Shown here piece after piece: positions 12,441 through 55,650 of a stretch of 64,000 nucleotides of DNA. The notes below the pieces were generated by a model that was not told the origin of the DNA, searched no databases, and saw nothing but the letters and a program-made list of their open reading frames with translations. The DNA lies in IMG/VR virus record IMGVR_UViG_3300025018_000101, positions 91,237 through 155,236 of that record. One strand, given 5' to 3'. A program made the position numbers and the translations under genes. The stretch comes from a virus. Position 1 is the first letter of the stretch; every line of letters begins with the position of its first letter.

Positions 12441-12554
12441 AGCGCTCTCCCCCTGGTTGTGCCCGGCCATGAGCCGGGCGTTGAGTATCGAGCGAGCAGT
12501 TTGCCTGCCCGCTCAATGTCTTATGCCTGCGTCGGGCTGCGAACCCAGACAGGA

Positions 12555-12749
12555 CTACAGGGTCCCGACCATGCGCTCGATATCGCGCATCGCGTCCCTG
12601 GCTGCGTCATAGCGCTTCATGGCCGCACTGTAGTCCTTGTGGGTGGAGGGGCTCGACGCGACGTCGCGGAGCTCGTCGGCCGCCTCAATGAACTCCAGCA
12701 CGACTGCGGTGGACGGGGAGACGTGCTTCAGGTCAGAGACGGAGTACAC
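12555..12749 (-). CDS. Small hypothetical protein
   Basis: GTG start with GAGGT RBS after the preceding stop; helical sequence. Confidence 0.45.
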   Translation of the reverse strand: MYSVSDLKHVSPSTAVVLEFIEAADELRDVASSPSTHKDYSAAMKRYDAARDAMRDIERMVGTL

Positions 12750-12757
12750 GGCGTACC

Positions 12758-14059
12758 TCAGCGGGCGACGAGCACGTTGCGCTGGCGGCGCAGAACGTCG
12801 CCGTCGGTGGTCAAGCCCGTGGCCGAGGTGGCCACGGGGTCGGTGCCCTGGACGATGAAGAGGTAGTCGAGCACCAGGGCGGTGCCGTCCCAGTCGGCCA
12901 GGATGGCGTCGAGGGCCTCGGCGCACTCGCGGTCGGTGGGCCGCGCCGCCAGGGTGGACACCGTGGTCTCCGGCTTGCCGAAGACGTAGAAGAGCTGCGC
13001 CACCCCGAGGACGGTCACGAGGCAGACCGCGACGTGGACCTCGTCCCCGACGACGAGGAAGGCCGTGGTGTCGTCGGACGCGACCGCGTCCGCACCGCCG
13101 GCGAGCGCCGTGGCGGCCACCGCCGTCTGCGCCGTACCGCCGGACGCCGTCGACGCGTCGATGAGCGCGAACGCGTCGATGTTGAAGGCCGGGTCGGTGT
13201 TGTCGGTCAGCGCGGCCACGATGTCCGCGGCCGTCGTGGTGATGGCCCCGGCGACCTTCTCCAGCGTGATCGTGATCTCCGGGCCCGCGACGCCCGCCAC
13301 CACCTCGATGGACAGGTCGGAGTCCACGTCGTTGGACTCGAGCTTGACGATGGCGATGTCGTCGCCGGCGACGCCATAGTCCCTGGCGGTGTAGAGCACG
13401 GCCTCGAGGGTCACGCTGGACCGTACCGCGATCACCGCGCCGTCCCCGAGCAGGATGTCCGTGTCGGCGCCGTCCAGCGCGGCCAGAGTGGTCGTCGTGA
13501 CCGAGGTGTCCCCGAGATAGGCCACGGCCGCGCTGAAGTCCAGGTTGACCCGGTACGCATCGCCGCCGGTGGCGCCGGTGAAGGTGCTGACCGTGGTGCC
13601 CGTGGTGACCCCGATGGCCCCCGCGATGGCGCCCTCGCCGAGGGTCTGCTTCCGAGCAGCCTCGCCCACTGCGCTCAGACCGAAGGCCATCACGATCAGG
13701 TACGCCGGGCCCGCATCCATCGACTGGATCGTCAGGACGTCGTAACTGATCAGCTCCCTGCCGACCGTCGAGTCCGACCAGGTGCCGATCAGGTCGGCCA
13801 GCGCGTCGTCCACGGACGTCAGGTTCGCCAGGCCCGCGAGCTTGAACAGCGGCTGGGCCGCCGTGTCCCCGTTGTAGTGGAACTGCAGCGCAAGAACGGG
13901 GTGGTAGTCACCGTTTTGCGCGACCGGGGCGTGGAGCGTGGTGCCCGACAGGCTGTAGCCCTCGGCCGCCTGGGCGTCCACGATGGCCTGAGCCGCGGCG
14001 GCCAGGTCCAGGACGTCCTTGATGCCGAGGACCTTGAGGCGGGGGTTCTGGGTGGCCAT
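12758..14059 (-). CDS. Putative virion decoration/structural protein (Ala/Thr/Val-rich)
   Basis: AAGGAGG RBS; contains an ITTTAADIVAAL...ALAGG module like one in the sheath. Confidence 0.65.
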   Translation of the reverse strand: MATQNPRLKVLGIKDVLDLAAAAQAIVDAQAAEGYSLSGTTLHAPVAQNGDYHPVLALQFHYNGDTAAQPLFKLAGLANLTSVDDALADLIGTWSDSTVGRELISYDVLTIQSMDAGPAYLIVMAFGLSAVGEAARKQTLGEGAIAGAIGVTTGTTVSTFTGATGGDAYRVNLDFSAAVAYLGDTSVTTTTLAALDGADTDILLGDGAVIAVRSSVTLEAVLYTARDYGVAGDDIAIVKLESNDVDSDLSIEVVAGVAGPEITITLEKVAGAITTTAADIVAALTDNTDPAFNIDAFALIDASTASGGTAQTAVAATALAGGADAVASDDTTAFLVVGDEVHVAVCLVTVLGVAQLFYVFGKPETTVSTLAARPTDRECAEALDAILADWDGTALVLDYLFIVQGTDPVATSATGLTTDGDVLRRQRNVLVAR

Positions 14060-14115
14060 GGGGCCCTCCTTGTGCAGATTGGATGGGACGTTGGACGCAG
14101 CACGGTCACTGCGGG

Positions 14116-14143
14116 ATTATACTTACCCCTACGCCCAGCGCAA
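14116..14143 (-). promoter_or_regulatory. Sigma70-like promoter
   Basis: TTGCGC-N16-TATAAT on the minus strand. Confidence 0.6.
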
Positions 14144-14209
14144 GTCCACCCGTGCCGTCTAAAGGAGAGGGTTGCGAGCGCCGAAGCGCCCACAACCTCC
14201 TCGCGCCCG

Positions 14210-15247
14210 TCAGGGCGTCTCGGCGTCGAAGTCGGCGTCGACGTCGAACTCCGCGACGTCGAGGCCCTCGAGGGCCTCGACGTTGCCGCGGGCGACGTCG
14301 GAGAGCTTGAAGCCCTCCCCCCCGCCGAGGCGAGGTCCGAGCTCGGCGCGGTCGCGCCGCTCCCCCCACCACCGGCCCTCGAAGTCGAGGAACCGGTCGG
14401 CGGGGGGAGGCGCCCCGGCCGCGTCAGCCAGGAGCTTGCACAGCTCCAGCGCCTCGTCCGGGAGGCCGAAGACCCCCCAGATCTGCGCCGCGACGAACGC
14501 CGGGTCGCTCCGGTCGGAGACGACCAGGCGCCGAGGCCTGCGGACGTGGCGGCCGTCCGCCGTGACCGTGTCGGTCATGTGGATGGCGAACGACGCGCCC
14601 TCCACGACCAGCGCGTCCGCCTCCTCCAGACGCGCCGACCGCGTCTTTCGGAGGTCGATGCGCGTGCTCCCGTCGTGGAGCACCCGCTCGACCTCACGGC
14701 CGATCCCGAGCCGATACCAGGACCGCACCGACCTCTTGGCCAGCACGGACACCTGGCGGTCCGAGCCGCCCGCCAGGGCCCACATCAGTCGGCCCTGCGT
14801 CAGGACCCCAGCCCTCGTGTGCAGGTAGCCGCTCTTTGCGGCCACCTCCAGGGACGTGGCGAGGTGGTAGAGGCCGTCCTCCTCGAGGACGGCCCCCTTG
14901 GCCCGGCGGAGGGCGCGGCCGTTCTTGACGAGCCAGGCCGGCGTGGCCTCGCTCAACGGCACCTCGACGACGCGGTTCGCCGTCTTCGACAGACGGACGA
15001 CCGCAATGCCCGCGTCCGTCTCCTCGTTGACCGCGAAGATCATGCCGGGGCACAGGACCCCGCCGATCTCCCGGCCGCCGAGCAGGTCGACGAGCTGGAC
15101 GCCGTCGGCCCCGGTGCGGCCGTCCCTCGTGCGGTACGCCCGCACGAGCCTGTAGTCGCGCTCGAGGCGCCAGGGCCCCAGCGCCAGGCTGGGGTCGGTG
15201 TTGTAGGTGGCCGCACTCGAAGGGGTCGGGACGGGGAGCAGTTCCAT
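14210..15247 (-). CDS. Hypothetical protein with acidic C-terminus
   Basis: AGGAGG RBS; 345 aa; typical codon bias; adjacent to TA-rich element A. Confidence 0.7.
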   Translation of the reverse strand: MELLPVPTPSSAATYNTDPSLALGPWRLERDYRLVRAYRTRDGRTGADGVQLVDLLGGREIGGVLCPGMIFAVNEETDAGIAVVRLSKTANRVVEVPLSEATPAWLVKNGRALRRAKGAVLEEDGLYHLATSLEVAAKSGYLHTRAGVLTQGRLMWALAGGSDRQVSVLAKRSVRSWYRLGIGREVERVLHDGSTRIDLRKTRSARLEEADALVVEGASFAIHMTDTVTADGRHVRRPRRLVVSDRSDPAFVAAQIWGVFGLPDEALELCKLLADAAGAPPPADRFLDFEGRWWGERRDRAELGPRLGGGEGFKLSDVARGNVEALEGLDVAEFDVDADFDAETP

Positions 15248-15500
15248 AGGTCCTCCTGCAGCCCGCGTCTTGCGGGCGCTTCAAGGGGGTTGTGGGGCGC
15301 GCGGTCGCGTTTGGCGAGGCGCACCACCTTGTACCAACACTGCGGGAGGTGGAAGACTGCACTTGCTGGCCGTGCCCGGCCGTACCCCTAACTGCGCATA
15401 TCGACTATTCAATGGCGCGTACTTTCCAGCCCGGACCACACGCGGTCGACAGACTTAGACCGACACGTGCGCCATATACTGCCGCCATGGACCGTATCGA

Positions 15501-15750
15501 GGGTCCGTCTGTAGACACCGTCGAGCACGGGACTGACAGGCTTTGGAGTTTTAAACATCTAAATATCGATACGAGGGTGCGGCTGGGAGCGCCGTGCCAC
15601 TCGGGCCCGGCGGTCTTAGACGCTCTAGAGAGGCAAAAACGGCATGTTTCGTCTCCGAAGGGCACTTGCACCGCAGCGGTCTCTCCAGCGCATCAGGGTT
15701 TGGAAATGTGGAGTGCGTACACGCCGGCCTCCGCAGGCTATAGCGTACTC
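15501..15750 (+). repeat. Diverged inverted repeat, copy A (TA-rich non-coding element)
   Basis: Nearly ungapped match to the reverse complement of 19382-19632; core 15641-15670 is 26/30 identical. Confidence 0.8.
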
Positions 15751-15870
15751 AACTGCCTTAATACGCTGGCACATTTCGCGTCTAGAGGCGCTGCGCCATT
15801 CGCCGAAGCCCAGCAGCCACGTCGTACCCGGAGTCCGTAGGCTATGAGCATCCAAATGCCCATATACGGA

Positions 15871-16496: not shown

Positions 16497-16504
16497 GGAT
16501 CATC

Positions 16505-17473: not shown

Positions 17474-17482
17474 GACGCCCGC

Positions 17483-19381: not shown

Positions 19382-19632
19382 GACACGGCCATAGGCTGGC
19401 GACGCCGTCGTACTGGCGTCCGGTGTTTCCGAAAGAGGCCAGCTCCGGCGGGTCCGTGCGATGTAAGTGCCCTTCCGAGTCGAAACATGCGTTATTTGGC
19501 CGCTGAGCATGCTTAACACTCTCGTCGCCGCACCCGACGGTGCTCCCACGCCGATGGTCGTACCTAAAGTATAGCGACCATGGAGGCCTAAGCCGGCCAG
19601 CACGCTATACGCCGAAGACCCCAGCTCGACCC
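19382..19632 (-). repeat. Diverged inverted repeat, copy B
   Basis: Reverse complement CGCATGTTTCGACTCGGAAGGGCACTTACA versus copy A GGCATGTTTCGTCTCCGAAGGGCACTTGCA. Confidence 0.8.
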
Positions 19633-20801: not shown

Positions 20802-21314
20802 TCACCCGCCGGACGGCTCCGGGCCGTGCTCGTCTCCAGCGGCTGCGAGGTCCTCAGCGTTGCGCTTGACCTCGAGCTTCCTCATGTAGCGCCTGAGCGC
20901 GGCCGCCATGCCCTCGGCCCACGCCACGGCCTTGGGCTTGTCGCAGGTTATGCCGCTGGCGTAGCAGTGCGCCCACCTGTCGCCCCCGAGGACCCTCCAC
21001 CGGCTCATGATGAGCAGGGCGGCCTCGACGTTCGTGTCGACCCTGTACAGGTCCACGACGTTGTAGGGCCCGTGACGGCCCGTGACGAAGTAGGGCTTGA
21101 CCTGCAGAAGGCCGATCTCCCCGCCCCCTCCGAGGGCACTGGCGTCGAACCTGGACTCGCGCCACGCCATCGCGGCGACGAACACCGGGTCGAACCCCTT
21201 CTTCGGCGCCTGGTCCTCGATGGACTCGCACGCCACTTGCGCGCGGTCGGCGGAGACGCCTTCGGTGCTGGCGAGCGCGATGCACGCGCACACCAGCAGA
21301 CTGAACTTGCACAT
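20802..21314 (-). CDS. Lytic transglycosylase (SLT domain) with N-terminal signal/anchor sequence
   Basis: AMAWRESRF (catalytic Glu), GLLQV, NVEAA and HCYASG motifs. Confidence 0.8.
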   Translation of the reverse strand: MCKFSLLVCACIALASTEGVSADRAQVACESIEDQAPKKGFDPVFVAAMAWRESRFDASALGGGGEIGLLQVKPYFVTGRHGPYNVVDLYRVDTNVEAALLIMSRWRVLGGDRWAHCYASGITCDKPKAVAWAEGMAAALRRYMRKLEVKRNAEDLAAAGDEHGPEPSGG

Positions 21315-21334: not shown

Positions 21335-21793
21335 CTACGCCGGCTTGTACCGCCGGCACAGCGCATTCACGTCTTCCCAGGACAGCTCCTGGGAGTAGAG
21401 CGTCGAGGCACCCTCGGTGCGGCCGTCAAGCGCCTCGAGGTGCTCGGCCTCGAAGTGGACGCCCCGTGGCGTCGCGGCCGCGACGAGACCGGCGCAGATC
21501 TGGGCCAGGGGCTGCACGCCGTCGACGGTCATCGCCGCGCCGCCCTCCGTGGTTCGCAGGGACGCGGAGTTCTGGACGTAGCGCGTGGCCGCCATGAAGG
21601 CGGCATCGACCCTGACGAACCCAGGCGACCCCCAGACGAGCGCCAGGGAGCGAAGCCGGTCGTCGCGGACTGCGTTGAACAGCGTATGGAGGTCGCCGAG
21701 GATACTGACGAGGTCGAGGTTGACCTCGACGACCGCCAGGACTGGCTCAGGGCCCGAGGGTACGAGCTCGACAGCGGGGATGAGCAGGTGCAT
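21335..21793 (-). CDS. Hypothetical protein
   Basis: Operon-like spacing; typical codon bias. Confidence 0.55.
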   Translation of the reverse strand: MHLLIPAVELVPSGPEPVLAVVEVNLDLVSILGDLHTLFNAVRDDRLRSLALVWGSPGFVRVDAAFMAATRYVQNSASLRTTEGGAAMTVDGVQPLAQICAGLVAAATPRGVHFEAEHLEALDGRTEGASTLYSQELSWEDVNALCRRYKPA

Positions 21794-25261: not shown

Positions 25262-25315
25262 GCTACCCTCCCTGTTGCGTTCGCGCTACGCCCTTGTAGC
25301 ACGCGCGAGGCGCGG

Positions 25316-32658: not shown

Positions 32659-33191
32659 CAAGCGCCTCCACCGACGAAGAGAGGCCCAAGCGGGGTCGAG
32701 GCCACCAGCGCAGGGTGCCCCTTGAACACGTGGCGCTTGCGCCGGACGTGCGGTCCCTGAATCGTGGACACGATCCCCGGGAACAGGTCGCCTGAGGGTC
32801 CGACCCAGCGTTTGGCGACAGCGACGCGCAGGTCGGGATCGCCCTGCCATGACGGCTCGGTTGCCGTGTACAGCGACAGGGAGTACTTGCCGTCGCGGCG
32901 GAATTCGATGTCCCCCGCTCCGACCACGTAGTGCTCCGCCCCGTCCAGGGACGCCACCGCGCCCAACCACTCGATGAACTGCGCGAGCTCTGAGGGCACG
33001 TACCTCGGATGTCGGATGCGCGCCTTGAACTCGAAGACCCGAGCGGCGGCCAGGTCGACAGGCCCGAGAACGGACACGCCTCGCCCCAGCATGTAGGGCG
33101 CTGTCGGGTCCGAGTCGTCGCCGTCGTCCGGTCGCTGGTAGCGTGAGTCCTCGTCGAAGAACGACCAGGGTTTTCCGCCGGGCTCAGCCAT
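32658..33191 (-). CDS. Hypothetical protein
   Basis: GGAG RBS; typical codon bias. Confidence 0.55.
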   Translation of the reverse strand: MAEPGGKPWSFFDEDSRYQRPDDGDDSDPTAPYMLGRGVSVLGPVDLAAARVFEFKARIRHPRYVPSELAQFIEWLGAVASLDGAEHYVVGAGDIEFRRDGKYSLSLYTATEPSWQGDPDLRVAVAKRWVGPSGDLFPGIVSTIQGPHVRRKRHVFKGHPALVASTPLGPLFVGGGA

Positions 33192-33759
33192 GGAGCTCCA
33201 GCATGCAGCCCGCTCCCTGGCACTTCGAAGTGACGGCCGTGGCCGACAGAATGCGCGAGACCTCCAGCCACCCTACCTTGCCTTCGAAGATGAGCTTGAA
33301 GGCGGCGAGCGACCGGGCCGCACGGGCGTCCCGACACACGACGTTGAAGTTCTCGACGGCCGTGCCGTCCGGGAAGCGTACCTCGGCCTGCGTCAGCTCC
33401 GACACCTGCCGCGATGGCGAGTACAGCGTCCACGCGGCCACACCGAGTGCGTCCGCCAGGGCGTCGAGTTCCTTCATCGTGAGCTCTTGCCCGCGGCCGT
33501 CGAGCAGCGCCTGGACGCGCCGAGGGTCAGGCGTGACGGACAGTCCCGTGGTTGTCGACAGGCGCTCCGCCCATCGCTCGGCGACCCAGGAGGCGCTGCA
33601 CCCCTGGTCGTGCATCAGCGACCCAACTCGCTTCTGCAGCTTCTTCATGGTGACGACGGCGAGGCCGAACCGACGCAGCTTCGCGCCGGCGACCTTGACC
33701 GCGTCCGATTGAGAGAGGACGCCCCGCAACTGCGGGGCGTCCGGAACGTAGACGATCAT
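33184..33759 (-). CDS. XRE/Cro-C1-like HTH DNA-binding protein
   Basis: VQALLDGRGQELTMKELDALADALGV. Confidence 0.65.
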   Translation of the reverse strand: MIVYVPDAPQLRGVLSQSDAVKVAGAKLRRFGLAVVTMKKLQKRVGSLMHDQGCSASWVAERWAERLSTTTGLSVTPDPRRVQALLDGRGQELTMKELDALADALGVAAWTLYSPSRQVSELTQAEVRFPDGTAVENFNVVCRDARAARSLAAFKLIFEGKVGWLEVSRILSATAVTSKCQGAGCMLELHG

Positions 33760-33958
33760 CCTGATCAGCCTCCTTCCTCGAGGGTTGAAGCGGTCATCCG
33801 ACCGCAGACGGCGCAGGTGCCACACGGCAACCGAGCCGGGCGCTGGCACGAGCACGGCCGCGAGCAGCGGCGGCGCTTGACGATGACGACGACCTCCACG
33901 GGCACGTCGCCGCCCAGGGCCCCACATCGGGATTCGGGATGAAGACGGGCACGCTCTT

Positions 33959-34294
33959 TTACCAACGCGGAGCCTCCTCGGTGGAGACGGCCGCCGGAGA
34001 GAAGCCCCCGATCAACAGGGGCTGAAGCAGCTTCCACGCCTTCAGGACGCTCATCGCGCGCGGGTCGTCGCCCTGCCGGAACTCCACGGTCTGGTCCGAC
34101 TTCTTGTAGGTGATGGAGGCGTGGAAGAAGCCCGCCCCCACACCGTCGCGACCCTGGTACTCGATGCGTGACGGCGCCTCGGAGTCCTCGACGGCCAGGC
34201 ACCACGGGTGCTCGGAGGACGCCGGGTAGCGGTAGGCCTGGCGCACGATCGCTCGCCAGGCGCGGGCGTCGACCTTGCGGAGATACATGATCAT
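33959..34294 (-). CDS. Hypothetical protein
   Basis: 3' part of ORF 33959-34654 shows typical codon bias. Confidence 0.5.
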   Translation of the reverse strand: MIMYLRKVDARAWRAIVRQAYRYPASSEHPWCLAVEDSEAPSRIEYQGRDGVGAGFFHASITYKKSDQTVEFRQGDDPRAMSVLKAWKLLQPLLIGGFSPAAVSTEEAPRW

Positions 34295-42734: not shown

Positions 42735-43021
42735 GCCAGCCTCCTCGGCGCAGGGCCCTCGATGGAGACGGCCGAGCGTCCCCAGGGCGTGTGCGCCACC
42801 AGCGCGGTGCGTACCGACGCGAACACCTCACGGTCGGTCATGGCCGTCCGCACCGGGACTTCGCTCACGGGGTAGTGGCCGTACTCGTCCGGGTCGAGGT
42901 CGAAGTCATCGACCGTCGTAAGAGCCTCGTAGAGCGTCCTCGAGGCGTCGAGGTCATCCGGCTCGATGCCGGGCAGGGTGAACACCAGCGTGATCAGCCG
43001 GTAGGAAGAAGGCTTCTCCAT
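42731..43021 (-). CDS. Hypothetical protein
   Basis: GGAG RBS before MEKPSS. Confidence 0.5.
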   Translation of the reverse strand: MEKPSSYRLITLVFTLPGIEPDDLDASRTLYEALTTVDDFDLDPDEYGHYPVSEVPVRTAMTDREVFASVRTALVAHTPWGRSAVSIEGPAPRRLA

Positions 43022-44664
43022 GCGTACTCCATGATGTGGCGCCACGTCGAGCGAGAGACCGCCAGGGTTGAGGCCGCGCGCAAGTGGCGGAGGGCGACAC
43101 ACTTGTCACCCCGCAGGTCAGCTACCGTGCGCGCCACGCGCAGGATGCTCTCGAGGTCACTGTCGCCGAGACCGGACGTCTCGCTGAAGGTCCGCAGGAC
43201 CTTCGCGTGGCACCACTTCGCGTCTCGGAGGACCTCGATGGGGACGCGGCCGTTGGTCCTGCCGCGCCTGGCGACGGCCAGGCCTCGGAGCTTGACCACG
43301 AGCCGCTGCGCCGATGCGGTGTCGTGACCGGTAAGCCCCAGGGTCTCGAGCTCCCCGAGGAGGGGGTGCGTCGCGTCGATGCCGTCGTCCACGGCGATGA
43401 CGCCGCCTCGGGGGAAGAGTTCGTCGAGCTGCGCCCGGATGGGCGACAAGTGCGCCTCGGCCGCGGCCTGAGACAGGTCCTGCCCAGGACTGGGCCTGTA
43501 CGGCGTCGCAGTCGCGATGAGGCAGACGTCGCCAGCGGGCATATCCCTGGCGGAGGTGCCCGCGTCCAGCACCGTCCGCAGCGCACTGACAGCGGCGCGC
43601 TTGAAGAGGTGCACGTCGTCCAGGAACAGGACGCCGTGGTGGGCGAGCGTGACCTCGCCAGGCAGCACGCGCCCCCTCGAGTTCCCGGTGAGCGCGTCCA
43701 CACTGATGGTGTGGTGCGGCGCGCGGAACGGGCGACCTTGCCGGCGGGTCAGGCCTGCCACGGAGGCGACTCGTCGAATCTCCCACGTCTCGGAGTCGGT
43801 CAGCGGGGGCAGCAGCGACGGCGCCCTCCGAGCCAGCGCGACCGTGCCGTAGTCCCCGACCATCACCAGCGGGTGGTCCCCCGCCAGGGCGAGCACCATC
43901 GCGCCCTTCAGCGCGTCTCGACCCTTGACGTCGTCGAGCTCCGAGTAGACGTCCGGCTCCCGCGCCGGCGTACGTGTCCAGGGCACGGCGTCCTGGAGAC
44001 CGTGCATGGAGGCGATGAGTTCGTCCAGGTTGGACTCGGCGAACACGCGGATGCGGCCACGCGCGCCGTCGACCGCGTCCGCCGCCACGCCCGGCTCCCC
44101 GTTGTACGTCGCGGCCGCGACGACCAGCCCGGACATGTTGAAGTCGGCCACCGCCTCGGCCGCCGGGTACGCGCCCCGGACCGGCTCGAGGTAGCCCCCC
44201 AGTGACAGCCCGGCAGCGAACGCCACGTCCTTCCACGCCGGCGAGGCGGAGTCGACCTGGCCCGACGCCCGCAGCAGCGCGATGGCGAACCCCAGGTCCG
44301 ACACGTACGACGGCGTCAAGGGAGGCCCCTCGACCCCGAGCGTCACGTCCCCCTCCGGCCAGGACAGGCCCTCGGTGCTCCGGATGGCGTGCCTCAGGCG
44401 CACGGCCAGCTCCTTGGCGTCCCCGTCGCCCATACAGGGCACCGACACCGTCGGCGCCGTCGACCTGGCGATGGTGCACGTCACGCGCACCACGACGCCA
44501 CGGACGCCCTCGTGCCCGGCCACCCAGGCCGCCCCCTCCCCCGTCATCGGGTGGTTGGTCTTCGGCGTCCCCGTCAGGTAGGCGTCGAACTCCCTGGAGT
44601 CGTGCCCCAGGGTCGCCATCTCCCGCCACCGGTCCCCGATCCTGCCCTTGTCCTTTTCGGCCAT
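42994..44664 (-). CDS. ComM/YifB-like Mg-chelatase-family AAA+ protein with degenerate Walker motifs
   Basis: Lon-like N-domain (DLGFAIALL, LSLGGYLEPVRG); RPFRAPHHTIS; PGEVTLAHHGVLFLD; ILRVARTVADL. Confidence 0.85.
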   Translation of the reverse strand: MAEKDKGRIGDRWREMATLGHDSREFDAYLTGTPKTNHPMTGEGAAWVAGHEGVRGVVVRVTCTIARSTAPTVSVPCMGDGDAKELAVRLRHAIRSTEGLSWPEGDVTLGVEGPPLTPSYVSDLGFAIALLRASGQVDSASPAWKDVAFAAGLSLGGYLEPVRGAYPAAEAVADFNMSGLVVAAATYNGEPGVAADAVDGARGRIRVFAESNLDELIASMHGLQDAVPWTRTPAREPDVYSELDDVKGRDALKGAMVLALAGDHPLVMVGDYGTVALARRAPSLLPPLTDSETWEIRRVASVAGLTRRQGRPFRAPHHTISVDALTGNSRGRVLPGEVTLAHHGVLFLDDVHLFKRAAVSALRTVLDAGTSARDMPAGDVCLIATATPYRPSPGQDLSQAAAEAHLSPIRAQLDELFPRGGVIAVDDGIDATHPLLGELETLGLTGHDTASAQRLVVKLRGLAVARRGRTNGRVPIEVLRDAKWCHAKVLRTFSETSGLGDSDLESILRVARTVADLRGDKCVALRHLRAASTLAVSRSTWRHIMEYAWRSLLPTG

Positions 44665-44703: not shown

Positions 44704-44730
44704 CGAGGCAACTCCTTGTGCCACTGACTC
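44704..44730 (-). promoter_or_regulatory. Phage-specific upstream motif GAGTCAGTGGCACAAGGAGTTGCCTCG
   Basis: 24/27 identical to 55624-55650(+). Confidence 0.7.
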
Positions 44731-44779
44731 GTTGGGGCGCCCGGAACTAAAGAAGAGGCGCCGGAGCGCCCCCCCATCC

Positions 44780-44862
44780 GCCGCCGCCCTACTTGCCGTA
44801 GGGCGGCGACCACCCAGCCGCCGCCCTACGGCAAGTAGGGCGGCGACCACCCAGCCGCCGCC
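44780..44862. repeat. 37-bp tandem palindromic units with inverted loops, forming a 27-bp perfect inverted repeat
   Basis: CGCCGCCCTAC-TTGCC-GTAGGGCGGCG followed by CGCCGCCCTAC-GGCAA-GTAGGGCGGCG. Confidence 0.9.
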
Positions 44863-45053: not shown

Positions 45054-45144
45054 ACGGCCCTCCTTGCCCCAACGGGGCACAGTGGGAGTCCCGACATGGG
45101 ATGCCCGTTTTTACCTCATAATTACAGTATGCACTCTAATCTAA

Positions 45145-45170
45145 AGAATGCCCCCCGGGATTGGGGGGCG
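45145..45170 (-). terminator. Rho-independent terminator
   Basis: GCCCCCCAATCCCGGGGGGC followed by ATTCTTT; a similar hairpin sits at 48936-48960. Confidence 0.6.
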
Positions 45171-45175
45171 TCGGG

Positions 45176-46135
45176 CTACGGGGCCGGCCACGCCCTGGCC
45201 AGTTCGGCCATCACGGCCTCCCTGGCCCGCGCCACGCCGTCTGGCCGAACCACCCTCTCGGAGAGGGCGGCCCGGACGACGAGCATGGCCTCGGCGGACC
45301 GCCCCCGCCGTGTCGCCGGGTCCGGGCACCCGGCGACACCGATGAGCGTCGCGAGGGGCCCGGCCCCCGCCCGGGCCTGGCGGGCGACCGCGCCCAGGGC
45401 GGCCCGCCTCCCGCGGGTCCGCCACTGGTTCTCGCGGTCGGCGTCCCGCCCGCGCCCGGACGGGCCGGGGACGCCCGCCAGGCCCCGCCCGAGCGCCGCG
45501 CGTTGGTCCTCCGACCTGACGGCCTGAATGGCCGCCTCCACGAGGCGGCGGCCTCGGGAGGAGGCGGCGGCCGCCGCCAGCCACCGCGCCTCGGCGAGGC
45601 GCTCCGCCTCGCGGGCCGCCGCCGCCTCCGACCGGAGGGCGGTGACTAGCCGGATCCGCAGCCCCGACGCGCGCTTCTCCAGCGCGCGGGCGACTACCCA
45701 CGCGCTCCCCACGGACCCCGCGGCGGGGACCCAGTCGCGGATCACCCCCGAGGGCTGGAGGGCGCCCAGCTCGGCGCGGAGGACGTCCGCGGCCGATGAG
45801 CCAGCCTCCTCGGCCTCGACCCGGGCCCGCGCCGCCTGGGCCGTGGCGCGGGCCAGGACCGCGCGCGCCCGCGCGGGGTCGTGGTCGAGCGGGAGGTCCG
45901 CATCGACCAGGACCTCGGCCAGGCCGCGGTACGCGCCCTTCGACGCGCACACCAACTGCCCGAACTCCTTCGGGCTGACCTCCCCCGCGCGAACCGCGCG
46001 GAAGAGGTCCTCCGCCTCGTCGACGGTCCGACGCCGTCGACGAGGCATCCACGCCGCCAGGCGGCCCGGCCACGGCGCCACCGCCGCCGCCGACGCCACC
46101 GCGGCGTTGCCGTTGCCGTTGTTGTTGTTGGTCAT
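45176..46135 (-). CDS. Ala/Arg-rich hypothetical protein
   Basis: Start at MTNNNNGNG after a structured leader. Confidence 0.55.
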   Translation of the reverse strand: MTNNNNGNGNAAVASAAAVAPWPGRLAAWMPRRRRRTVDEAEDLFRAVRAGEVSPKEFGQLVCASKGAYRGLAEVLVDADLPLDHDPARARAVLARATAQAARARVEAEEAGSSAADVLRAELGALQPSGVIRDWVPAAGSVGSAWVVARALEKRASGLRIRLVTALRSEAAAAREAERLAEARWLAAAAASSRGRRLVEAAIQAVRSEDQRAALGRGLAGVPGPSGRGRDADRENQWRTRGRRAALGAVARQARAGAGPLATLIGVAGCPDPATRRGRSAEAMLVVRAALSERVVRPDGVARAREAVMAELARAWPAP

Positions 46136-48853: not shown

Positions 48854-48979
48854 GACGGCCTCCGAGCTGCCGAAGTGGGACCCACGGACCCCGGCAGCAA
48901 TGGGGCGCGCAGGGACGGCGCAACATTGCGCCCTAAAGGAGCGCCCCCGGGACTGGGGGCCCGGGGCGGACACGGCGGC

Positions 48980-49426
48980 TCAGATGGCCAGCGCGTGCAC
49001 CGCCCAGAATGCCTCGCTTTCGGCGAGGCACTCCGGGGACACCCTCGCGGCGTCACCCGGCTCCCGGGGCGCCACCCCGGGCCCGCCGTACGCGGTGAGG
49101 AGGAAGACAGCGTCTTCCTCCTCCCGGCAGGCGGCGACGATGAACACCATTTCACCGCAGGTGCGTGCGGGCCGCCGGATGCAGCGGCTGGGGGCTGCCC
49201 GGTCCCCCCGGACGACGTACTCGACGTCGTCTTCGGCTACCGGCGCGTCGCCGGCCATGGGCCCGTAGAGGGCCGAGGGGAGGGGCGCTACCCCCTCCGG
49301 GAGGACGACGTGGCGGAGGATGAACCTCGCCTCGTCGCCGGCGACGGACTGACGGATGACCTCGATGTGGTCCTCCGTCAGTCCGTGGTCCAGGTGCGCC
49401 CCGGCACCTATTACGAGCTTGGCCAT
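48980..49426 (-). CDS. Phage hypothetical protein
   Basis: GGAGGG RBS; HLDHGL, LYGP and LLTAYGGP.APREPGD. Confidence 0.65.
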   Translation of the reverse strand: MAKLVIGAGAHLDHGLTEDHIEVIRQSVAGDEARFILRHVVLPEGVAPLPSALYGPMAGDAPVAEDDVEYVVRGDRAAPSRCIRRPARTCGEMVFIVAACREEEDAVFLLTAYGGPGVAPREPGDAARVSPECLAESEAFWAVHALAI

Positions 49427-49439: not shown

Positions 49440-49680
49440 GCCCCCGAGGGGGCGGTGGGGCGGGTCACCCCGCCGTTGATGGTGCCAACGCGGCACCAGT
49501 GAGCTCCTGGGATGGACGTCGACCGAGCCATTTCAGTTGGTCGTGCCCTCCTTGCGGAGAGCTCCCAGGAGCTCGCTGCTGGCGCGTTGGCGAGTGGCGG
49601 TATTGCCACGGGGGGTTTGGGGGCGTGCACCCCGATTGTCGGCATCCGTGTTGACGGACGCCAACGCCTTGTGCCGACGA
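49440..49680 (-). ncRNA. Candidate structured RNA or long 5' leader
   Basis: A 12-bp stem (49501-49512 with 49563-49574) closes a 3-way junction with a GCAA tetraloop; further hairpins on both sides. Confidence 0.45.
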
Positions 49681-49768: not shown

Positions 49769-52700
49769 GTGGAGCAGCGCAGCATTTCGGACATTCTGGC
49801 GTCGTCACCGACCATCCGTCAGGGCTTCGTCCAGGGCCAGCAGCAGTTCACCCAGATGGGCCAGCAGTTCCTTGGCGGACCCTCTCCGAACACCGAGCCG
49901 ACGTACTCGCCTCCGACGCCTCAGGGAGGTGGTACGCTGATGGGGCAGATGACGCTGCCGCAGGCGGCCTACATCCCGCCGCCTCCCCCGCGCCTGATCA
50001 TCCCGCCGGCGCCTCCGGTACTGCCTACGCTGGACCGCTCGAGGCTGCAGCCTATGCAGCAGCCTCCGTACTACCAGCAGCAGATGCCCAACATGATGGG
50101 GCCGATGGGGCCGATGGGCGCGGCCGCACCGCTGCCCCCCCCGTTCCCCATGGGCAGCGGCATGGCCGCTCCTGGGATCCTGCCTGTCAGCATGATCGGG
50201 TCGCCGACGATGAAGACGCCGTACGCCTCGGCGTACGAGTCGAACCTGATCTATGGCAACCAGATGGCGCAGCTCGGCATGATGGACCGGCGGGCGGCTC
50301 TGGCCGCCGGCGGGTCGCTGTTCTCTGGCATCGCCTCGACGGCGCTGGGCACGATGATCGGCGGTTACGCCGGCGCGGGGATCGGGTTCGGCGTGACGGG
50401 CGGAAGCGCGGCCGGCGCGTTGACGGGCGCGGACATCGGCGCGTCGCTGGGCGGGGCCGTGCTCAGTCCGCTGATCGCCCGCAGCCAGACGATGCAGCAG
50501 GTCATGAGCACGGCGCTCCGGCCCGCCATCGAGGGCATGATCGACACGTCCCAGATGCGCATGGGGTCGAGGTCGTACCTGACCGGCGGCCCCGACGTGG
50601 GCCTGGCGGGCCGCGGCCTGTCCCACGGCGCGTCGGCTGCCCTGGTGCGGGACCTCGGGTCGCTGGCCCAGGCGTCCCACGGTGAGTTCACGCGCCGGGA
50701 CATGATGGACATCACCTCGGCCGCCGGTGACACCGGGCTGCTCGAGATGGCGCAGAACCGCGAGCAGATCACCTCGACGGTGAAGAAGGTGGCCAACCTG
50801 CTCGGCACCATGGCGCAGATCACCGGCGACCCTGACTTCCGCAAGAACATCCAGCTCATCGCCGCCCTGAAGTCGGGCGGTGTCGAGCTCGAGCACATGA
50901 ACCGCGTCGTGCACAACCTCGGCAACTCCGCCCGAGGCGCGGGCACGACCGTTGAGCGCGTCCTCCAGGAGGGGGGCGCGTTCGGCCAGCGCGCGTATCA
51001 GGGCGCCGGCATGACGGCATCCTCTGGCATCGTCGCGGGGGCCGAGAGCCAGGCCATGGCGCGGCAGGCCGTGTCCAGCGGCGCGTTCACCGAGCACCAG
51101 CTCGCGCTCATGGGCGGCGAGGAGGGGCTCAGGGACAAGCTCTCCAGCATCACCGCCTCTGCCCTGGCCAAGAGCGAGGTCTTTCTGCCCGCCCTGCTGA
51201 CCAAGGGCGAGGACGGCAAGTGGCACATCGACAAAGAGAAGGCGGAGCGCCTGAAGAGCGGCGGCGACCCGATGCTCAAGGCGCTGCGGGAGGGGGCCGG
51301 CAAGCTGACGGTCAAGCAGATCCAGGACATCAACGCCCACAAGGGCGAATACCTGACGGAGCTGTCCGAGACCCTGGGCTCCCAGGGCGTCCTGCAGATG
51401 TCCATGGAGCACATGGACCAGCTCAAGGCTATGAACCCCGGCACGATCACCGACGAGGGTGCGGCCGCGGCGGCCTTCGGCAACGCCCCCAACGCAGCCG
51501 TCGTCATGTCCGGCCTCAAGAACTCCCAGGGCTTCTGGAAAAACATGGCGGCCGCGCACGCCAAGAGCGCTGAGATCGACCGCTTCGAGGCCGCCCAGAA
51601 GATCGCCGAGCGCCGAGAGCGTGCCAACCCGGGGCTGCTCACCCGAGGCGTCAATTGGGCCAAGAACAACAGGGCATCCGGTGTGGCCCTGCCGGGCATA
51701 GGCCTGGCGCTGACAGGCGCCCGCTACGCCTACGGGGCCGTCGAGGATACGTACGACCGGTTCCAGCTCGACGCCCAGGAGTACGCTACCAACAAGATGG
51801 CCGAGCAAGAGGCCGCGGCCGTGGGCCGGTCGTTCTACACGCAGAACCGAGGCATCCAGTCCGTCCTGTCGGCCCCCTCGGACGAGGAGCAGAAGAAGCG
51901 CTGGATGGCGCAGGTCGTCGATCAGTCCCGCGACGCCTCCTACGGCAGCCCCGACTGGAACGTGTCCGGCGTCAACCGGAGCATCATGGCGGACATGGGT
52001 CTGGGCGGGATGGGGTACGGTAACGTCGACCAGGGCGTGAACACGACCTGGTCGCTGATGCACGGACCCGTGCTGGCGGCCAAGGCTTCTTACGGGGCCT
52101 TCAAGAACCGCGGCAGGATCAGCGAGAACTACGGCCGCTGGAGGCACGGAGTGGGTAGCAAGGAGCTCGAGGCCTCCCGGGACTTCGCCCGTCTGTCCGA
52201 CGGCCGGTTCAGGGGCGCCGTCGATGCGGTGACGTTCGACGCGTTCGACGGTCGCGACTACAAGGAGCTTCGACAGCAGGCGAACGAGACCGTGTCGGCC
52301 ACAGCTACCGTGGCCCGGGGCGACTTCAAGGCCATGGCCACGGACGCCCAGGTGCTCCGCCAGACGCTCATGGAGGCCAACCTTACGCCCGAGCAGGTCG
52401 ACAGGATCCTCGAGGACGTAGGCAGTGGCGTCGCCGGGGCCGTGACGAAGGACGCCCTGGGGTTCGGCGACGCCCAGGGCATGAACACGTCGAAGGTGCT
52501 CGGCGGCATCCGGTCGACCATCGGAGGGTACGGTGTAGACACCCCCGAGTTCCTACACTACCTGACGCCCGAGCAGCAGAAGAGGGTTCAGGGCGTCCTG
52601 GCGTCCCCGGAGGGCCAGAGGGGCTCACTTGCCCTGGGTGTGCGGCAGAGCGCGGACGTCAAGGTGGCCATTGACAAGGGCAGGACCTCCGCCCAGACGG

Positions 52701-53635
52701 TGGGCTCCGCGCGCGACATGGACATCGCCACGGCCTCGGGCGAGTCCCAGGCCGTCGGCGACCTGAACGCCCTCCTGTCCGGCATGGGCCTGGCCAAGAC
52801 CGACGACATGAACACCGCCGAGATGCGGGCCATCACCTACATCCAGGGCGCGGACCCACTGGTGGTTGAGGCCATGGCGCTCGAGGCGGCGAGGCGAGAC
52901 TCCTCGATCTCGACGAACGTGGAGGCGGCCATCGACAAGTGGATGAAGATGGCCCCCCAGGGCGACTTCTCCCGGGCGAAGGCGATGCAGGAGGCCCGAG
53001 ACAACATCGGCGCCCTGAGCGAGAACCCGAAGGAGCTCGCGGTCTACACGAAGCTGCTCTTCAAGCACAAGACCAACTTGGGGTCCGTGGACCTGGAGGG
53101 CCTGCGCAGCGGCGTCAGGCAGCTCAAGGGCGCCACCGGGGGCGTGGTCGTGGCGCAGGTCAACTCCTCCATCTCGCTACTGTCCTCTGGCGTATCCGAC
53201 TTCGAGGGCGCCAAGAGCATCGGGGCGCTGGCGGCGAAGTGGAAGATGGCTTCACCCGAGGGGCGGTCGAAGCTCCTTGCGCGCGCGCGGGGCATGGGCT
53301 TCGACTCCTCCATGATCGAGACCGCCGTCGGCCAGATCAACAGCGGGGACCCCGAGAAGGACGCCAAGGGCCGAGAGGCCCTCATCGAGGGTCTGCGCAG
53401 CGGCACGGTCACTTCCGAGGTCGCCCCCATGCTCGAAGCTGAGGGCAGTGAGGTGGTGAGGGACGACCGCAAGCGCGAGGCCGCGGCCAACATCATGGCC
53501 GCAAAGGCCGTCGGCACGAGCGCTGAAAAGCTCTCCTCGGTAGCCGACCGCCTCGATGGCGCCCTCGACCGCTTCGAGAAGCTGCGGGTCACGCCAGGCC
53601 AGGTCGCAGGCAACGACGTCAAGCCAGCAGGGTAG
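49769..53635 (+). CDS. Putative tail tape measure protein
   Basis: About 1290 aa, Ala/Gly/Met-rich and helical, with glycine-zipper hydrophobic segments; AGGAGG RBS before the GTG at 49769. Confidence 0.75.
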   Translation: MEQRSISDILASSPTIRQGFVQGQQQFTQMGQQFLGGPSPNTEPTYSPPTPQGGGTLMGQMTLPQAAYIPPPPPRLIIPPAPPVLPTLDRSRLQPMQQPPYYQQQMPNMMGPMGPMGAAAPLPPPFPMGSGMAAPGILPVSMIGSPTMKTPYASAYESNLIYGNQMAQLGMMDRRAALAAGGSLFSGIASTALGTMIGGYAGAGIGFGVTGGSAAGALTGADIGASLGGAVLSPLIARSQTMQQVMSTALRPAIEGMIDTSQMRMGSRSYLTGGPDVGLAGRGLSHGASAALVRDLGSLAQASHGEFTRRDMMDITSAAGDTGLLEMAQNREQITSTVKKVANLLGTMAQITGDPDFRKNIQLIAALKSGGVELEHMNRVVHNLGNSARGAGTTVERVLQEGGAFGQRAYQGAGMTASSGIVAGAESQAMARQAVSSGAFTEHQLALMGGEEGLRDKLSSITASALAKSEVFLPALLTKGEDGKWHIDKEKAERLKSGGDPMLKALREGAGKLTVKQIQDINAHKGEYLTELSETLGSQGVLQMSMEHMDQLKAMNPGTITDEGAAAAAFGNAPNAAVVMSGLKNSQGFWKNMAAAHAKSAEIDRFEAAQKIAERRERANPGLLTRGVNWAKNNRASGVALPGIGLALTGARYAYGAVEDTYDRFQLDAQEYATNKMAEQEAAAVGRSFYTQNRGIQSVLSAPSDEEQKKRWMAQVVDQSRDASYGSPDWNVSGVNRSIMADMGLGGMGYGNVDQGVNTTWSLMHGPVLAAKASYGAFKNRGRISENYGRWRHGVGSKELEASRDFARLSDGRFRGAVDAVTFDAFDGRDYKELRQQANETVSATATVARGDFKAMATDAQVLRQTLMEANLTPEQVDRILEDVGSGVAGAVTKDALGFGDAQGMNTSKVLGGIRSTIGGYGVDTPEFLHYLTPEQQKRVQGVLASPEGQRGSLALGVRQSADVKVAIDKGRTSAQTVGSARDMDIATASGESQAVGDLNALLSGMGLAKTDDMNTAEMRAITYIQGADPLVVEAMALEAARRDSSISTNVEAAIDKWMKMAPQGDFSRAKAMQEARDNIGALSENPKELAVYTKLLFKHKTNLGSVDLEGLRSGVRQLKGATGGVVVAQVNSSISLLSSGVSDFEGAKSIGALAAKWKMASPEGRSKLLARARGMGFDSSMIETAVGQINSGDPEKDAKGREALIEGLRSGTVTSEVAPMLEAEGSEVVRDDRKREAAANIMAAKAVGTSAEKLSSVADRLDGALDRFEKLRVTPGQVAGNDVKPAG

Positions 53636-53678
53636 CTGTGACGCCCGTAGCAGTGTCACGGCGACGCGACACATTTCA

Positions 53679-53707
53679 TTGACACGGCGGCCGTCAGCCT
53701 GCATATT
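53679..53707 (+). promoter_or_regulatory. Sigma70-like promoter
   Basis: TTGACA-N17-CATATT. Confidence 0.6.
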
Positions 53708-53730
53708 GACGGCGTATCCACCGACGGGGA

Positions 53731-53970
53731 GTGCTCGTGAGTCGCTACACGCTTCGCATCCAGGACCTCTACGACGCGACGAACGCCAAGCGCCGAGCCC
53801 AGGACTTGTCCTGGCGCGCTCTCGGCCGAGAGCTCTGTGTGAGTGCTTCATCGCTCACGCAGATGAAGCACGGCCGAAAGCCTTCTGCGGACGGCCTCAC
53901 GACCCTGCTGGTGTGGCTCCAACAACCGGCGGCCTTGTACGCCGTCGACACGCAGCGAGACTGTACATGA
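53731..53970 (+). CDS. XRE-family HTH regulator
   Basis: LSWRALGRELCVSASSLTQMKHGRKPS. Confidence 0.75.
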   Translation: MLVSRYTLRIQDLYDATNAKRRAQDLSWRALGRELCVSASSLTQMKHGRKPSADGLTTLLVWLQQPAALYAVDTQRDCT

Positions 53971-54860
53971 ACCCCTCCTTCCCCCTCGGCGTCGGCGCAG
54001 GCATTGGCCTGGCCGGCGCCAGCATGCACCAGGGTGCATTCCGAAGCCACCAGGCGCCCCCGGGCCAGGTCGCGTCGCTCACCGACGCTGACGGCGTCGT
54101 CGACCCGCTGTTCCTGGGGGTCCTGGCCTCCATGCCCCTGGAGGCCCGGACGTACGCGGTCATGGTGCACGAAGGGGTCCTGTCGCGCATCTTCGAGGCC
54201 GCTCGCCAGGTGGGCGAGAAGAGTCGGGTGGCCGTGGCAGCCCGTCTCATGGCCGTGCGCGAGGGCTACCTGACCAAGACCGGCGTGGGTTTCCTCGTTC
54301 GCCTGGAAGAACTGCAGGAGGCGATCGAGTCACGTCAGGCGATGCGCGTCCCCGGGCGGCCTGGTCGCGACCAGGGGTCGCGTGCCAGCGGCGCGCTTGA
54401 AGGCGCTGGCCGTGCTCTTGCCGCCATCTGCGCCAATCAGGGCGTGGCGTCGGCGGCCGAGCTCGACCCGACGCTGACGTGCAACGACCTGCTGCAGGGG
54501 GCGGTCAAGCACATGGAGCGCGACGAGGGCGTCGAGCCGTCCGAGGCGGACGTGGACGCCATCGTCTTCCTCCTCCGGGAGTGCACCGCGGCCTCCATTG
54601 AGGCGCTGACCTCGGAGCTGGGCGGCCACCACATGGCGCTGGCGCAGTTGCTGGGCGTCTCTCGGAGCGTCGTCGAGCCGGTGACCTCGGTGCTCGGACT
54701 CTCCGAGGTCAACACGGGCAGGCCTCCCGTGAAGGACGCCGTTGTCGTCCCGGACAACACCTACCGCTACGCCGCGGCCCTGTCCTGGCTGCTCGGCAAG
54801 GACGGTAGGGGCTTCGTCGAGGACTTGAACGACCTCGTCGTGACCCCCATCCCCGACTGA
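53967..54860 (+). CDS. Hypothetical protein with a possible C-terminal HTH
   Basis: ATGA overlap; LAQLLGVSRSVV. Confidence 0.6.
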   Translation: MNPSFPLGVGAGIGLAGASMHQGAFRSHQAPPGQVASLTDADGVVDPLFLGVLASMPLEARTYAVMVHEGVLSRIFEAARQVGEKSRVAVAARLMAVREGYLTKTGVGFLVRLEELQEAIESRQAMRVPGRPGRDQGSRASGALEGAGRALAAICANQGVASAAELDPTLTCNDLLQGAVKHMERDEGVEPSEADVDAIVFLLRECTAASIEALTSELGGHHMALAQLLGVSRSVVEPVTSVLGLSEVNTGRPPVKDAVVVPDNTYRYAAALSWLLGKDGRGFVEDLNDLVVTPIPD

Positions 54861-54870
54861 GAGGTGACCC

Positions 54871-55089
54871 GTGACCGCGACGACCATGACCCGCACGGAG
54901 CTTCTGACGCCGACGGCCCAGAACCTGCTTCAGGTCGCCCACCACCAACTGGTGGAGGCCGCCAGAGAGCGCAGGGAGATGACCGCGGAGCTGCCAGCCC
55001 TGCTGAGCCGTGCGGACCTCGTGGTCAACCGTGCGCGCTTGCTCCTGGTTGAGACGACCGCGACAGCCGCCTCCGAGAGGCGACTGTGA
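54871..55089 (+). CDS. Small hypothetical protein
   Basis: Coupled to the downstream exonuclease. Confidence 0.5.
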   Translation: MTATTMTRTELLTPTAQNLLQVAHHQLVEAARERREMTAELPALLSRADLVVNRARLLLVETTATAASERRL

Positions 55090-55619
55090 AGGCGCATCCG
55101 TGGTCCGCGCTGCCGTCTCGCTTCGTGGCGGTGGACGTAGAGACGACGGGGTTCAAGAACAGCGACCGCGTCATCGCCTTCGCCGCCATCTTCTTCGAGG
55201 CAGGGCAGGAGGTGAAGGCGTTGACGACGCTCATCAACCCCGAGTGCCGCATCCCGGCCGCGGTGACGAAGCTGACGGGTATACACCCAGAGGACGTCCG
55301 CGACGCGCCCCTGTTCAGGGACGTCGCCTCGACCGTCCTGAAGTGCCTCAAGGGCAAGCTGCTCGTGGGGCACAGCCTGGCGTTCGACGTCCGGATGCTC
55401 CGAGGCGAGTTCGCGCGCCTGGGCAGGGAAGCCGACCTTGAGTACCTCGAGACGCGAGACACCCTGCCCTGGGCCCGGGACCTGCTGGAGGAGCTCCCGA
55501 GCAAGAAGCTCGCGTCCGTAGCGGACGCTCTCGGTGTCCCGCTCGTTAACGCGCACTCTGCCGACGGCGACGCGCGAGCGACGGGACTGGTGGCCCTGGC
55601 CCTGGACGGCAGGAGGTAG
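55086..55619 (+). CDS. DEDDh 3'-5' exonuclease (DnaQ/epsilon-like)
   Basis: VDVETTG, GHSLAFD and HSADGD motifs. Confidence 0.9.
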   Translation: MKAHPWSALPSRFVAVDVETTGFKNSDRVIAFAAIFFEAGQEVKALTTLINPECRIPAAVTKLTGIHPEDVRDAPLFRDVASTVLKCLKGKLLVGHSLAFDVRMLRGEFARLGREADLEYLETRDTLPWARDLLEELPSKKLASVADALGVPLVNAHSADGDARATGLVALALDGRR

Positions 55620-55623
55620 CGCC

Positions 55624-55650
55624 GACTCAGTGGCACAAGGATGTGCCTCG
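55624..55650 (+). promoter_or_regulatory. Phage-specific upstream motif GACTCAGTGGCACAAGGATGTGCCTCG
   Basis: 24/27 identical to 44704-44730(-). Confidence 0.7.

Follow-up and report, generated by a model that had tools for sequence, protein, structure and literature searches.

The 64,000-nucleotide (nt) stretch studied here, referred to as the window, comprises bases 91237-155236 of the IMG/VR virus record IMGVR_UViG_3300025018_000101, which is 155,236 bp long. The record has a guanine-plus-cytosine (GC) content of 69% and a completeness score of about 88%, and is without a close cultured relative. Gene calling from codon usage and GC at third codon positions (GC3) gave 171 genes and left an intergenic share of 7.1%. 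The subject of this work is a short word found upstream of transcription units, GGYAHAAG-N3-KTG, which we call the box and of which a first-pass annotation had listed six copies in the window. Positions are window coordinates unless they are marked as genome positions, which refer to the whole record.

Box copies in the phage genome

All six listed copies are exact matches to the pattern and lie where they had been placed, and they are the only ones in the window, for which dinucleotide shuffling predicts 0.06. The copy at 12514..12527 on the minus strand (GGCATAAGACATTG, score 23.7) is intergenic and opens a short unit that holds a 17-codon hydrophobic micro-open reading frame (micro-ORF) at 12387..12440(-) (MKLIRLVFVRLLDFFVG), 87 nt past the box, and is closed by a terminator, a hairpin followed by CTTTAG, at 12341..12385(-) (fold energy -35.3 kcal/mol). 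The box at 15322..15335(-) (GGTACAAGGTGGTG, score 21.1) stands 88 nt upstream of a gene for 345 amino acids (14210-15247(-)) that ends at a hairpin-TTTAG near 14164, and the one at 33950..33963(-) (GGTAAAAGAGCGTG, score 19.6) is separated by 204 nt from a gene for 191 amino acids (33184-33759(-)). About 25 nt past the hairpin-TTTAG tail at 44752 lies the copy at 44709..44722(-) (GGCACAAGGAGTTG, score 21.8), with the gene of a ComM/Mg-chelatase-like ATPase (42994-44664(-)) 58 nt downstream. The box at 49662..49675(-) (GGCACAAGGCGTTG, score 18.4) has a CAAAT block upstream at about -17 and precedes by 249 nt a gene for 148 amino acids (48980-49426(-)), the unit being closed by a hairpin-TTTAG near 48938. 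The sole plus-strand copy, at 55632..55645(+) (GGCACAAGGATGTG, score 21.2), is followed after 62 nt by a gene for 74 amino acids (55694-55918(+)).

The first-pass annotation had also mentioned two weaker copies. The one near 21340 is a weak candidate at 21338..21351(-) (GGTACAAGccggCG) in the final codons of the upstream gene, 37 nt ahead of an SLT-transglycosylase gene (20802-21314(-)); it retains the exact core and the pyrimidine-purine pair described below, but its score of 13.2 is lower than that of all 11 strong copies of the record. The one near 25295 is without the GG and was not recovered. Reading by eye suggested, with low confidence, a possible degenerate copy that has lost the AAG at 45092..45105(-) (GGCATCCCATGTCG), past the terminator at 45146 and ahead of a gene for 75 amino acids; its upstream sequence, ATGAGGTAwAAA..GGCAT, is similar to that of a copy at genome position 61303.

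As the pattern had been defined post hoc from the copies seen, broader tests were run, with the backwards (reversed) word as the control for word counts and composition-matched words for intergenic counts. In the whole record the exact pattern occurs nine times, against one occurrence of the backwards control. Three further exact copies, at genome positions 60681(-), 61303(-) and 62370(-), lie outside the window, as do two one-mismatch copies at 62034 and 61669. The core GG[CT]A.AAG has 24 matches in the record, 14 of them intergenic (binomial p = 8e-11), while the composition-matched control words had on average 2.0 intergenic matches and at most nine. A weight-matrix scan of the record gave 11 copies scoring at least 18.4, ten on the minus and one on the plus strand, and the next-best score was 15.1. 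In a prior-free search of 86,450 gapped words (8-mers), GGCA.AAG (9/11 intergenic) appeared near the top of the enrichment, with T.CTTTAG as the sole word ranked above it. All 11 strong copies are intergenic. The first-pass annotation had described the box as always in the sense orientation, and every copy does have a gene or small unit of the same strand on its 3' side. Five such units follow one another at genome 60.3-62.4 kb, each with a box at its start and a hairpin at its end. The repeated word GGYAHAAG is hereby confirmed as real in this phage.

Neither tRNA genes nor Rfam families were found in the window or in the genome 60-80 kb region, so the small box-headed units there are not known RNAs. 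Several words in the intergenic enrichment table were inflated by a coding repeat of the GGCAACGGC type (Gly-Asn-Gly-Tyr-like); the record starts inside it (genome 1-265, outside the window), and the repeat runs off the contig end.

The word T.CTTTAG, the most intergenic-enriched of the genome (9/9 intergenic), belongs to a sequence-specific terminator class, in which (T/C)CTTTAG comes directly after a strong hairpin of G+C. Its general form [CT]TTTA[GC] occurs 30 times in 155 kb, 22 times between genes and about 17 times after a hairpin. The hairpin-TTTAG terminators of the window are all on the minus strand (12341-12385, 14159-14205, 19564-19610, 44747-44790, 45141-45185 and 48933-48975), and others are at genome positions 60263, 60723, 61333, 61733, 62069, 42858, 42923(+) and 36150. 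As tails of this kind also precede the box in relatives (see below), hairpin-CTTTAG could serve as the cognate stop signal for the polymerase encoded by the phage.

That RNA polymerase (RNAP) is encoded outside the window by two genes, one for a 1903-amino-acid beta-beta'N fusion (genome 62438-68149(+)) and one for a beta'C protein of 607 amino acids (genome 69040-70863). Residues ~400-750 of the fusion are an intein-like insert that matches LAGLIDADG and intein-bearing phage proteins and is absent from most relatives, whose protein has about 1450-1500 residues. A second kind of box, TTGnnn-N17-YAnnnT, has 40 matches, 11 of which have an intergenic -10 element, most of these at a remarkably uniform distance of 58-84 nt before a start codon. 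Boxes of the form TTGnnn-N17-(T/C)AnnnT are found ahead of plus-strand genes and structural genes as well as of the replication operon and the RNAP gene, in agreement with the earlier remark that structural genes have sigma-70-like boxes. The results support two promoter classes in a two-tier scheme.

At the RNAP gene the two classes meet: the box copy at genome 62370(-) is arranged back-to-back with the gene's TCGACT-N17-TACAGT, 3 nt from its -35 element (genome 62357-62401), and the box and the sigma-70-like promoter may compete. In several relatives the RNAP gene begins about 9 nt past a TAnAnT -10 box, and this spacing suggests a leaderless RNAP mRNA.

Conservation in uncultured and cultured relatives

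Searches with single proteins found no close relatives in IMG/VR, and an alignment-based search was required. With a homologue alignment of the RNAP protein, 240 relatives were confirmed in IMG/VR, and the best 80 of these were used (73 non-identical loci; RNAP identity 41-49%; GC 38-69%); the nearest relatives are 55% identical and thus above the range of this set. Raw box-word counts over entire loci were discarded because they resembled the controls, coding-sequence word usage being dominant, so that tests of position, strand and intergenic location were needed. Of the 80 loci, 67 (59 of the 73 non-identical ones) have a GGTAnAAG on the strand opposite to the RNAP gene match and no more than about 130 nt upstream of it. 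Over the RNAP loci, GGTA.AAG....TG has two matches on the strand of the RNAP gene and 50 on the opposite one, compared with 10 and 12 for the backwards control. The complete relative G001 has no forward and nine reverse copies (control 0/1), and the seven in the 20-kb stretch examined each lie closely 5' of an open reading frame (ORF) of the same strand; in the complete relative G002 there are six forward and no reverse copies (control 1/3).

The nearest cultured phages are Salmonella phage Arash and Vibrio phage D69, with an RNAP identity of 34%. In Arash, the top intergenic words of the prior-free search all spell GGTATAAG, and 38 of the 40 copies of GGTA.AAG are on one strand (control 17 and 14). 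Between 20 and 70 kb of the Arash genome, 13 of 13 copies are at boundaries of GenBank genes or tRNAs, with the next feature of the same strand 20-155 nt downstream; one of the Arash copies is 20 nt ahead of a tRNA-Asn gene. For D69 the top words give GTTATAAG, with 4 forward and 24 reverse copies. The strict pattern with TG after N4 was rejected as the universal form, as it missed Arash, where TG comes after N5. TAnAAG with its final G is constant in the whole family, and the two bases ahead of it vary slightly (GG, GT and CCTATCAG-type variants). Tails similar to those of our phage (TCTTTAC/G, TTTTAG) are found ahead of the box in G001, G002, Arash and D69. Conservation of the box across the family is thereby confirmed despite deep RNAP divergence and GC contents of 38-69%. 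A full-text literature search for the box words returned nothing relevant, and the paper on Arash does not contain the word 'promoter'.

Two further features were seen in the relatives. Eight loci (L018, L025, L062, L068, L076, L077, L084 and L089) share a conserved unit about 5 kb upstream of the RNAP gene (locus ~4.1-5.2 kb), in which a box with a clear ACAAA -35-like block is followed after about 10-45 nt by a terminator-type CTTTAC tail, in some cases after a short hairpin, and then by a gene start that reads ATG/GTG-GCA in several loci; such a unit could act as an attenuator or reflect another function of the CTTTA(C/G) word. Past the RNAP-proximal box, about 17 relatives have hydrophobic ORFs of 12-20 codons (MLIRSVFRFVIFVVGRR, MVITFIEILLWTL and others). 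The micro-ORF at 12387-12440(-) of the window, with its own box and terminator, looks by its sequence like a conserved tiny membrane-type peptide.

Promoter anatomy and candidate reader

The anatomy of the box was pooled from the copies of the relatives, Arash and D69. An A-rich block, (t/g)CnAAAa, peaks 19-15 nt before the GG (A 50-75%) or about 16-17 nt before TAnAAG. The family layout from 5' to 3' is this A-block, a spacer of about 15 nt, GG, TAnAAG, usually some A-rich bases and a pyrimidine-purine pair. The gap from the hexamer to the pair is 4 nt in this phage and most relatives and 5 nt in Arash and D69. In Arash, positions 13 and 14, which had been left free, are T in 87% and G in 74% of the copies, and in the other relatives, where copies had been selected for pyrimidine-purine at positions 12-13, the pair is TG in about three-quarters. 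The Shine-Dalgarno sequence often begins right at the G of the pair, from which it follows that the RNA starts at this G or earlier; the 'KTG' of the first-pass annotation would most simply be the start dinucleotide. In sigma-70 numbering the box reads T-15 G-14 G-13 T-12 A-11 n A-9 A-8 G-7, where the T ahead of the GG is present in 7 of 13 local copies and in 71% of the RNAP-proximal ones, and the G at -7 is invariant in all copies collected from this phage, the relatives, Arash and D69.

The two-block design of sigma-70-family promoters, with an A at -11 and a second block about 17 nt upstream, is therefore present, but the T expected at -7 is replaced by G throughout. By its sequence, the box is best described as a new specificity within the sigma-70-family architecture and not as a housekeeping promoter, the invariant -7 G and the GG at -14/-13 being unlike what host sigma-70 selects. 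Extended -10 promoters of sigma-70 have the consensus TGnTATAAT, with a strong preference for T at -7. They share the register T-15 G-14 n T-12 A-11 n A-9 A-8, and their -35 element may be weak or absent, as in most copies of this phage; in the box, however, -7 and -13 are always G, and the class coexists with ordinary sigma-70-like boxes in one genome. In layout the box is closest to group-3 sites such as those of sigma-28 (FliA/WhiG), (-36)TCTAAAG(-30) ... (-15)GCCGATAA(-8) (PMC12784957). Both have an A-rich -35 element (TCnAAA in the phage family) that is separated by about 15 nt from an 8-base -10 element with a G/C-rich 5' half and a 3' half that keeps A-11, A-9 and A-8, and both would be read by a compact sigma of domains 2-3-4, predicted in the case of the phage. 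The phage 8-mer, on the other hand, is GGTAnAAG and not GCCGATAA, with G-7 invariant; the core enzyme proposed for it is phage-encoded, and the phage sigma is not specifically FliA-like.

Two other assignments were tried and dropped. An N4-style hairpin promoter would be formed by GGCAC/GTGCC pairing, of which two local copies are capable while the others and the relatives are not, and the TCTTTAG hairpin tail is too far from the GG (23-37 nt ahead of it) and too variable in distance to be a -35 element.

The first-pass annotation had proposed a search of the genome for sigma and RNAP genes, and both turned out to be present, as the beta-beta'N and beta'C proteins are accompanied by a protein of the sigma-70 family. 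Its sigma-like domain is the C-terminal ~230 residues of an 834-amino-acid NUDIX fusion encoded outside the window (genome 20045-22549(+)). The domain is homologous to Arash gp10 (E 4e-31) and aligns to SigA regions 2.3-3.1. A profile built from it and five relatives matches SigA, RpoD and RpoS over regions 2.3-4.2 with E-values of 2e-10 to 4e-7, and FliA was matched also. The Pfam model Sigma70_r3 gave 2.3e-5, just short of the cut-off, and the NCBIfam models RpoD_Cterm, SigBFG and FliA gave 1e-5, 8e-5 and 0.012. The Pfam models of sigma regions 2 and 4 alone gave no match on the protein, which indicates that it has diverged. In a Foldseek search with an AlphaFold2 model of the domain (pLDDT 72), the top matches listed were all sigma factors, aligned over nearly the full length. 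By sequence and predicted fold, domains 2, 3 and 4 of the sigma-70 protein family are recognizable. One sigma-like copy was found alongside the beta/beta' genes in each of the seven relatives tested. In seven relatives the protein stands alone with 235-250 residues, whereas here about 560 residues including a NUDIX hydrolase domain precede the sigma domain, with Lys-Glu-Ala directly ahead of it. A K-to-R change in the sigma was considered as the cause of the local tolerance of C for T at position 3 of the box and rejected, as the change is also found in relative G005.

T4 late promoters, with TATAAATA at -10, are read by gp55, and those of SPO1 by gp28/gp34. There too a phage sigma-family protein sets a private consensus that separates gene classes, but those sigmas borrow the host core, and T4 gp55 is minimal and without a domain that reads a -35 element. 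The early promoters of virion RNAPs of the phiKZ/AR9 type resemble the box as short, AT-richer motifs near -10 that can be found by bioinformatics ahead of small non-structural operons, and, as reported for Arash, in belonging to phages that package their own multisubunit RNAP. Their RNAPs are, however, split, highly diverged beta/beta' enzymes without a sigma-70-family subunit, while here an RNAP of bacterial type is combined with a two-block promoter and a protein of the sigma-70 family. The virions of Arash contain beta, beta' and gp10, the last with a sigma-factor annotation (PMC10585845). In a survey of 2021, sigma factors were found in the group-2 jumbo phages, which lack RNAP, and none in those of group 1, the main RNAP-encoding set (PMC7824862). 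A phage with both is a pairing outside the picture of that survey.

Weighing the explanations

A promoter reading of the box is strongly supported by its sequence context, and we consider it probable, by analogy with known systems, that the box is the core element of a family-specific promoter class, which is read by the family's own sigma and polymerase. The motif, its placement and its conservation, like the sigma and RNAP genes, were observed as such; we infer from them the reader, the start site and the timing. The reader would be the three-domain sigma-70-family protein together with the bacterial-type phage polymerase (beta-beta'N, beta'C). By analogy with sigma-70-family holoenzymes, domain 2 would recognize the non-template strand of TAnAAG, flipping A-11 and accepting G instead of T in its pocket for -7, region 3.0 would read the GG and domain 4 the A-block. 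The RNA would start at the pyrimidine-purine pair 4-5 nt past the hexamer. Boxes head short, terminator-bounded and mostly non-structural units, and the structural, replication and RNAP genes have the ordinary TTGnnn-N17-TAnnnT boxes. Since the virions of Arash carry polymerase and sigma, the box class probably comes into use as infection begins. The suggestion of the first-pass annotation that this is a phage-specific promoter class for a phage sigma or RNAP thus holds at the level of sequence, the box being conserved in relatives with those genes, while its sigma-54 framing is given up for the reasons below.

Several observations count against this explanation. Only about 4 of 11 copies of this phage have the upstream A-block, so that the class behaves here like an extended -10 promoter, and TGGTAnAAG fits the extended -10 consensus TGnTATAAT at every specified position but -7. 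Genome-wide counts of the strict word in two relatives, G003 and G004, were no higher than the control. Of the 59 relatives, several (L016-like and L090/L091-like loci) have an RNAP-proximal copy that is directed antisense into a gene running the same way as the RNAP gene and that lacks an ORF of its own; this departs from simple promoter logic and hints that this one copy has a regulatory role. The sigma alignment is without the W433/W434-type aromatic residues of sigma-70 region 2.3, and a phage sigma without this tryptophan pair may melt DNA differently. The reader and the timing are deduced from co-occurrence and analogy, and packaging of beta, beta' and sigma in virions is reported for Arash alone (PMC10585845).

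The least credible of the other explanations is a promoter of the sigma-54 type whose spacing is relaxed and which host RpoN reads together with an activator. Promoters of sigma-54 have the form TGGCAC-N5-TTGCW, with GG at -24, GC at -12 and a fixed G-to-G spacing of 11. Four local copies do read TGGCAC or CGGCAC, and five strong copies have GC past the T. This likeness is a superficial match of letters: the G-to-G distance in the box is 12 and never 11, one base over sigma-54 in all copies, as the first-pass annotation had noted. All 59 RNAP-proximal copies of the relatives have T at position 3, as do 4 of the 11 local copies, so the family form is GGTA and not GGCA; position 5 is free. Past the core, the relatives conserve the pyrimidine-purine pair (T + G) alone and neither TTGC nor a GC at '-12', so the family consensus departs from sigma-54 at its defining C and GC. 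As the C of 'TGGCAC' is peculiar to this phage, its resemblance to sigma-54 is a local accident. A six-frame search of the phage record (~88% complete) found no Sigma54 DNA-binding domain (Sigma54_DBD), and an identical box serves phages of very different hosts. With spacing and family consensus both contrary, the label of a 'sigma-54-like box with one extra base' is rejected. An operator for a phage DNA-binding regulator, or a signal at the RNA level such as a processing site or 5' leader, would explain why the RNAP-proximal copy keeps its place at the start of the RNAP gene even with nothing downstream. The motif is, however, asymmetric, strictly oriented with the downstream gene and located past terminators. 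It is accompanied by a spaced block on its 5' side and by a pyrimidine-purine pair that the Shine-Dalgarno sequence directly follows, and one copy in Arash precedes a tRNA gene; all of this makes such a role improbable, if somewhat less so than sigma-54.

The remaining two explanations keep the promoter and change the enzyme. An unusual extended -10 promoter read by the host sigma-70 holoenzyme, unmodified or modified by the phage, is favored by the near identity of TGGTAnAAG to TGnTATAAT and by the frequent T ahead of the GG in RNAP-proximal copies. We nevertheless hold it to be quite unlikely, as all copies collected from the family have G at -7, for which sigma-70 has a strong preference for T, as two distinct classes coexist, other genes having ordinary TTGnnn-N17-TAnnnT boxes, and as the box is kept across very different hosts. 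The strongest competitor, although still unlikely, is that the phage sigma redirects the host core in the manner of T4 gp55 or SPO1 gp28, while the phage beta/beta' serves other promoters. Phage sigmas that use the host core are a known precedent, the sigma-like protein has by its model a regular sigma-70-family fold, and no sequence feature ties it to the phage core. Yet the sigma and beta/beta' genes occur together in every relative tested, and one sigma would have to fit many cores, with hosts from Vibrio and Salmonella to bacteria of 69% GC. In addition, sigma and beta/beta' are both abundant virion proteins of Arash (PMC10585845).

With a family-private promoter read by the phage sigma and polymerase as the preferred explanation, it is also conceivable, although we put this forward more tentatively, that the phage family possesses a complete private transcription system of bacterial design that is delivered by the virion and controls the synthesis of its own RNAP. 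Its parts would be beta/beta', a sigma with the -7 pocket switched from T to G, the promoter A-block-N15-GGTAnAAG and the hairpin-TTTAG terminator. The enzyme and sigma delivered by the virion would start infection without dependence on the host, and through the near-universal copy back-to-back with the sigma-70-like promoter of the RNAP gene the phage holoenzyme would be able to switch off the production of its own polymerase or set its timing.

Promoters private to a phage are already known, but among the RNAP-encoding phages of the literature consulted the well-studied ones, phiKZ and AR9, have enzymes without a sigma-70-family subunit, and the well-studied sigmas of T4 and SPO1 borrow the host core. 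Here, both RNAP and sigma are encoded by a large family that is for the most part uncultured and has 240 RNAP relatives confirmed in IMG/VR. As its box word is conserved across genomes of 38-69% GC, it offers an annotation key for transcription units. The box further predicts a specific sigma variant that would accept G rather than T at -7, and with Arash and D69 in culture there is a direct experimental route to the promoters of this family.

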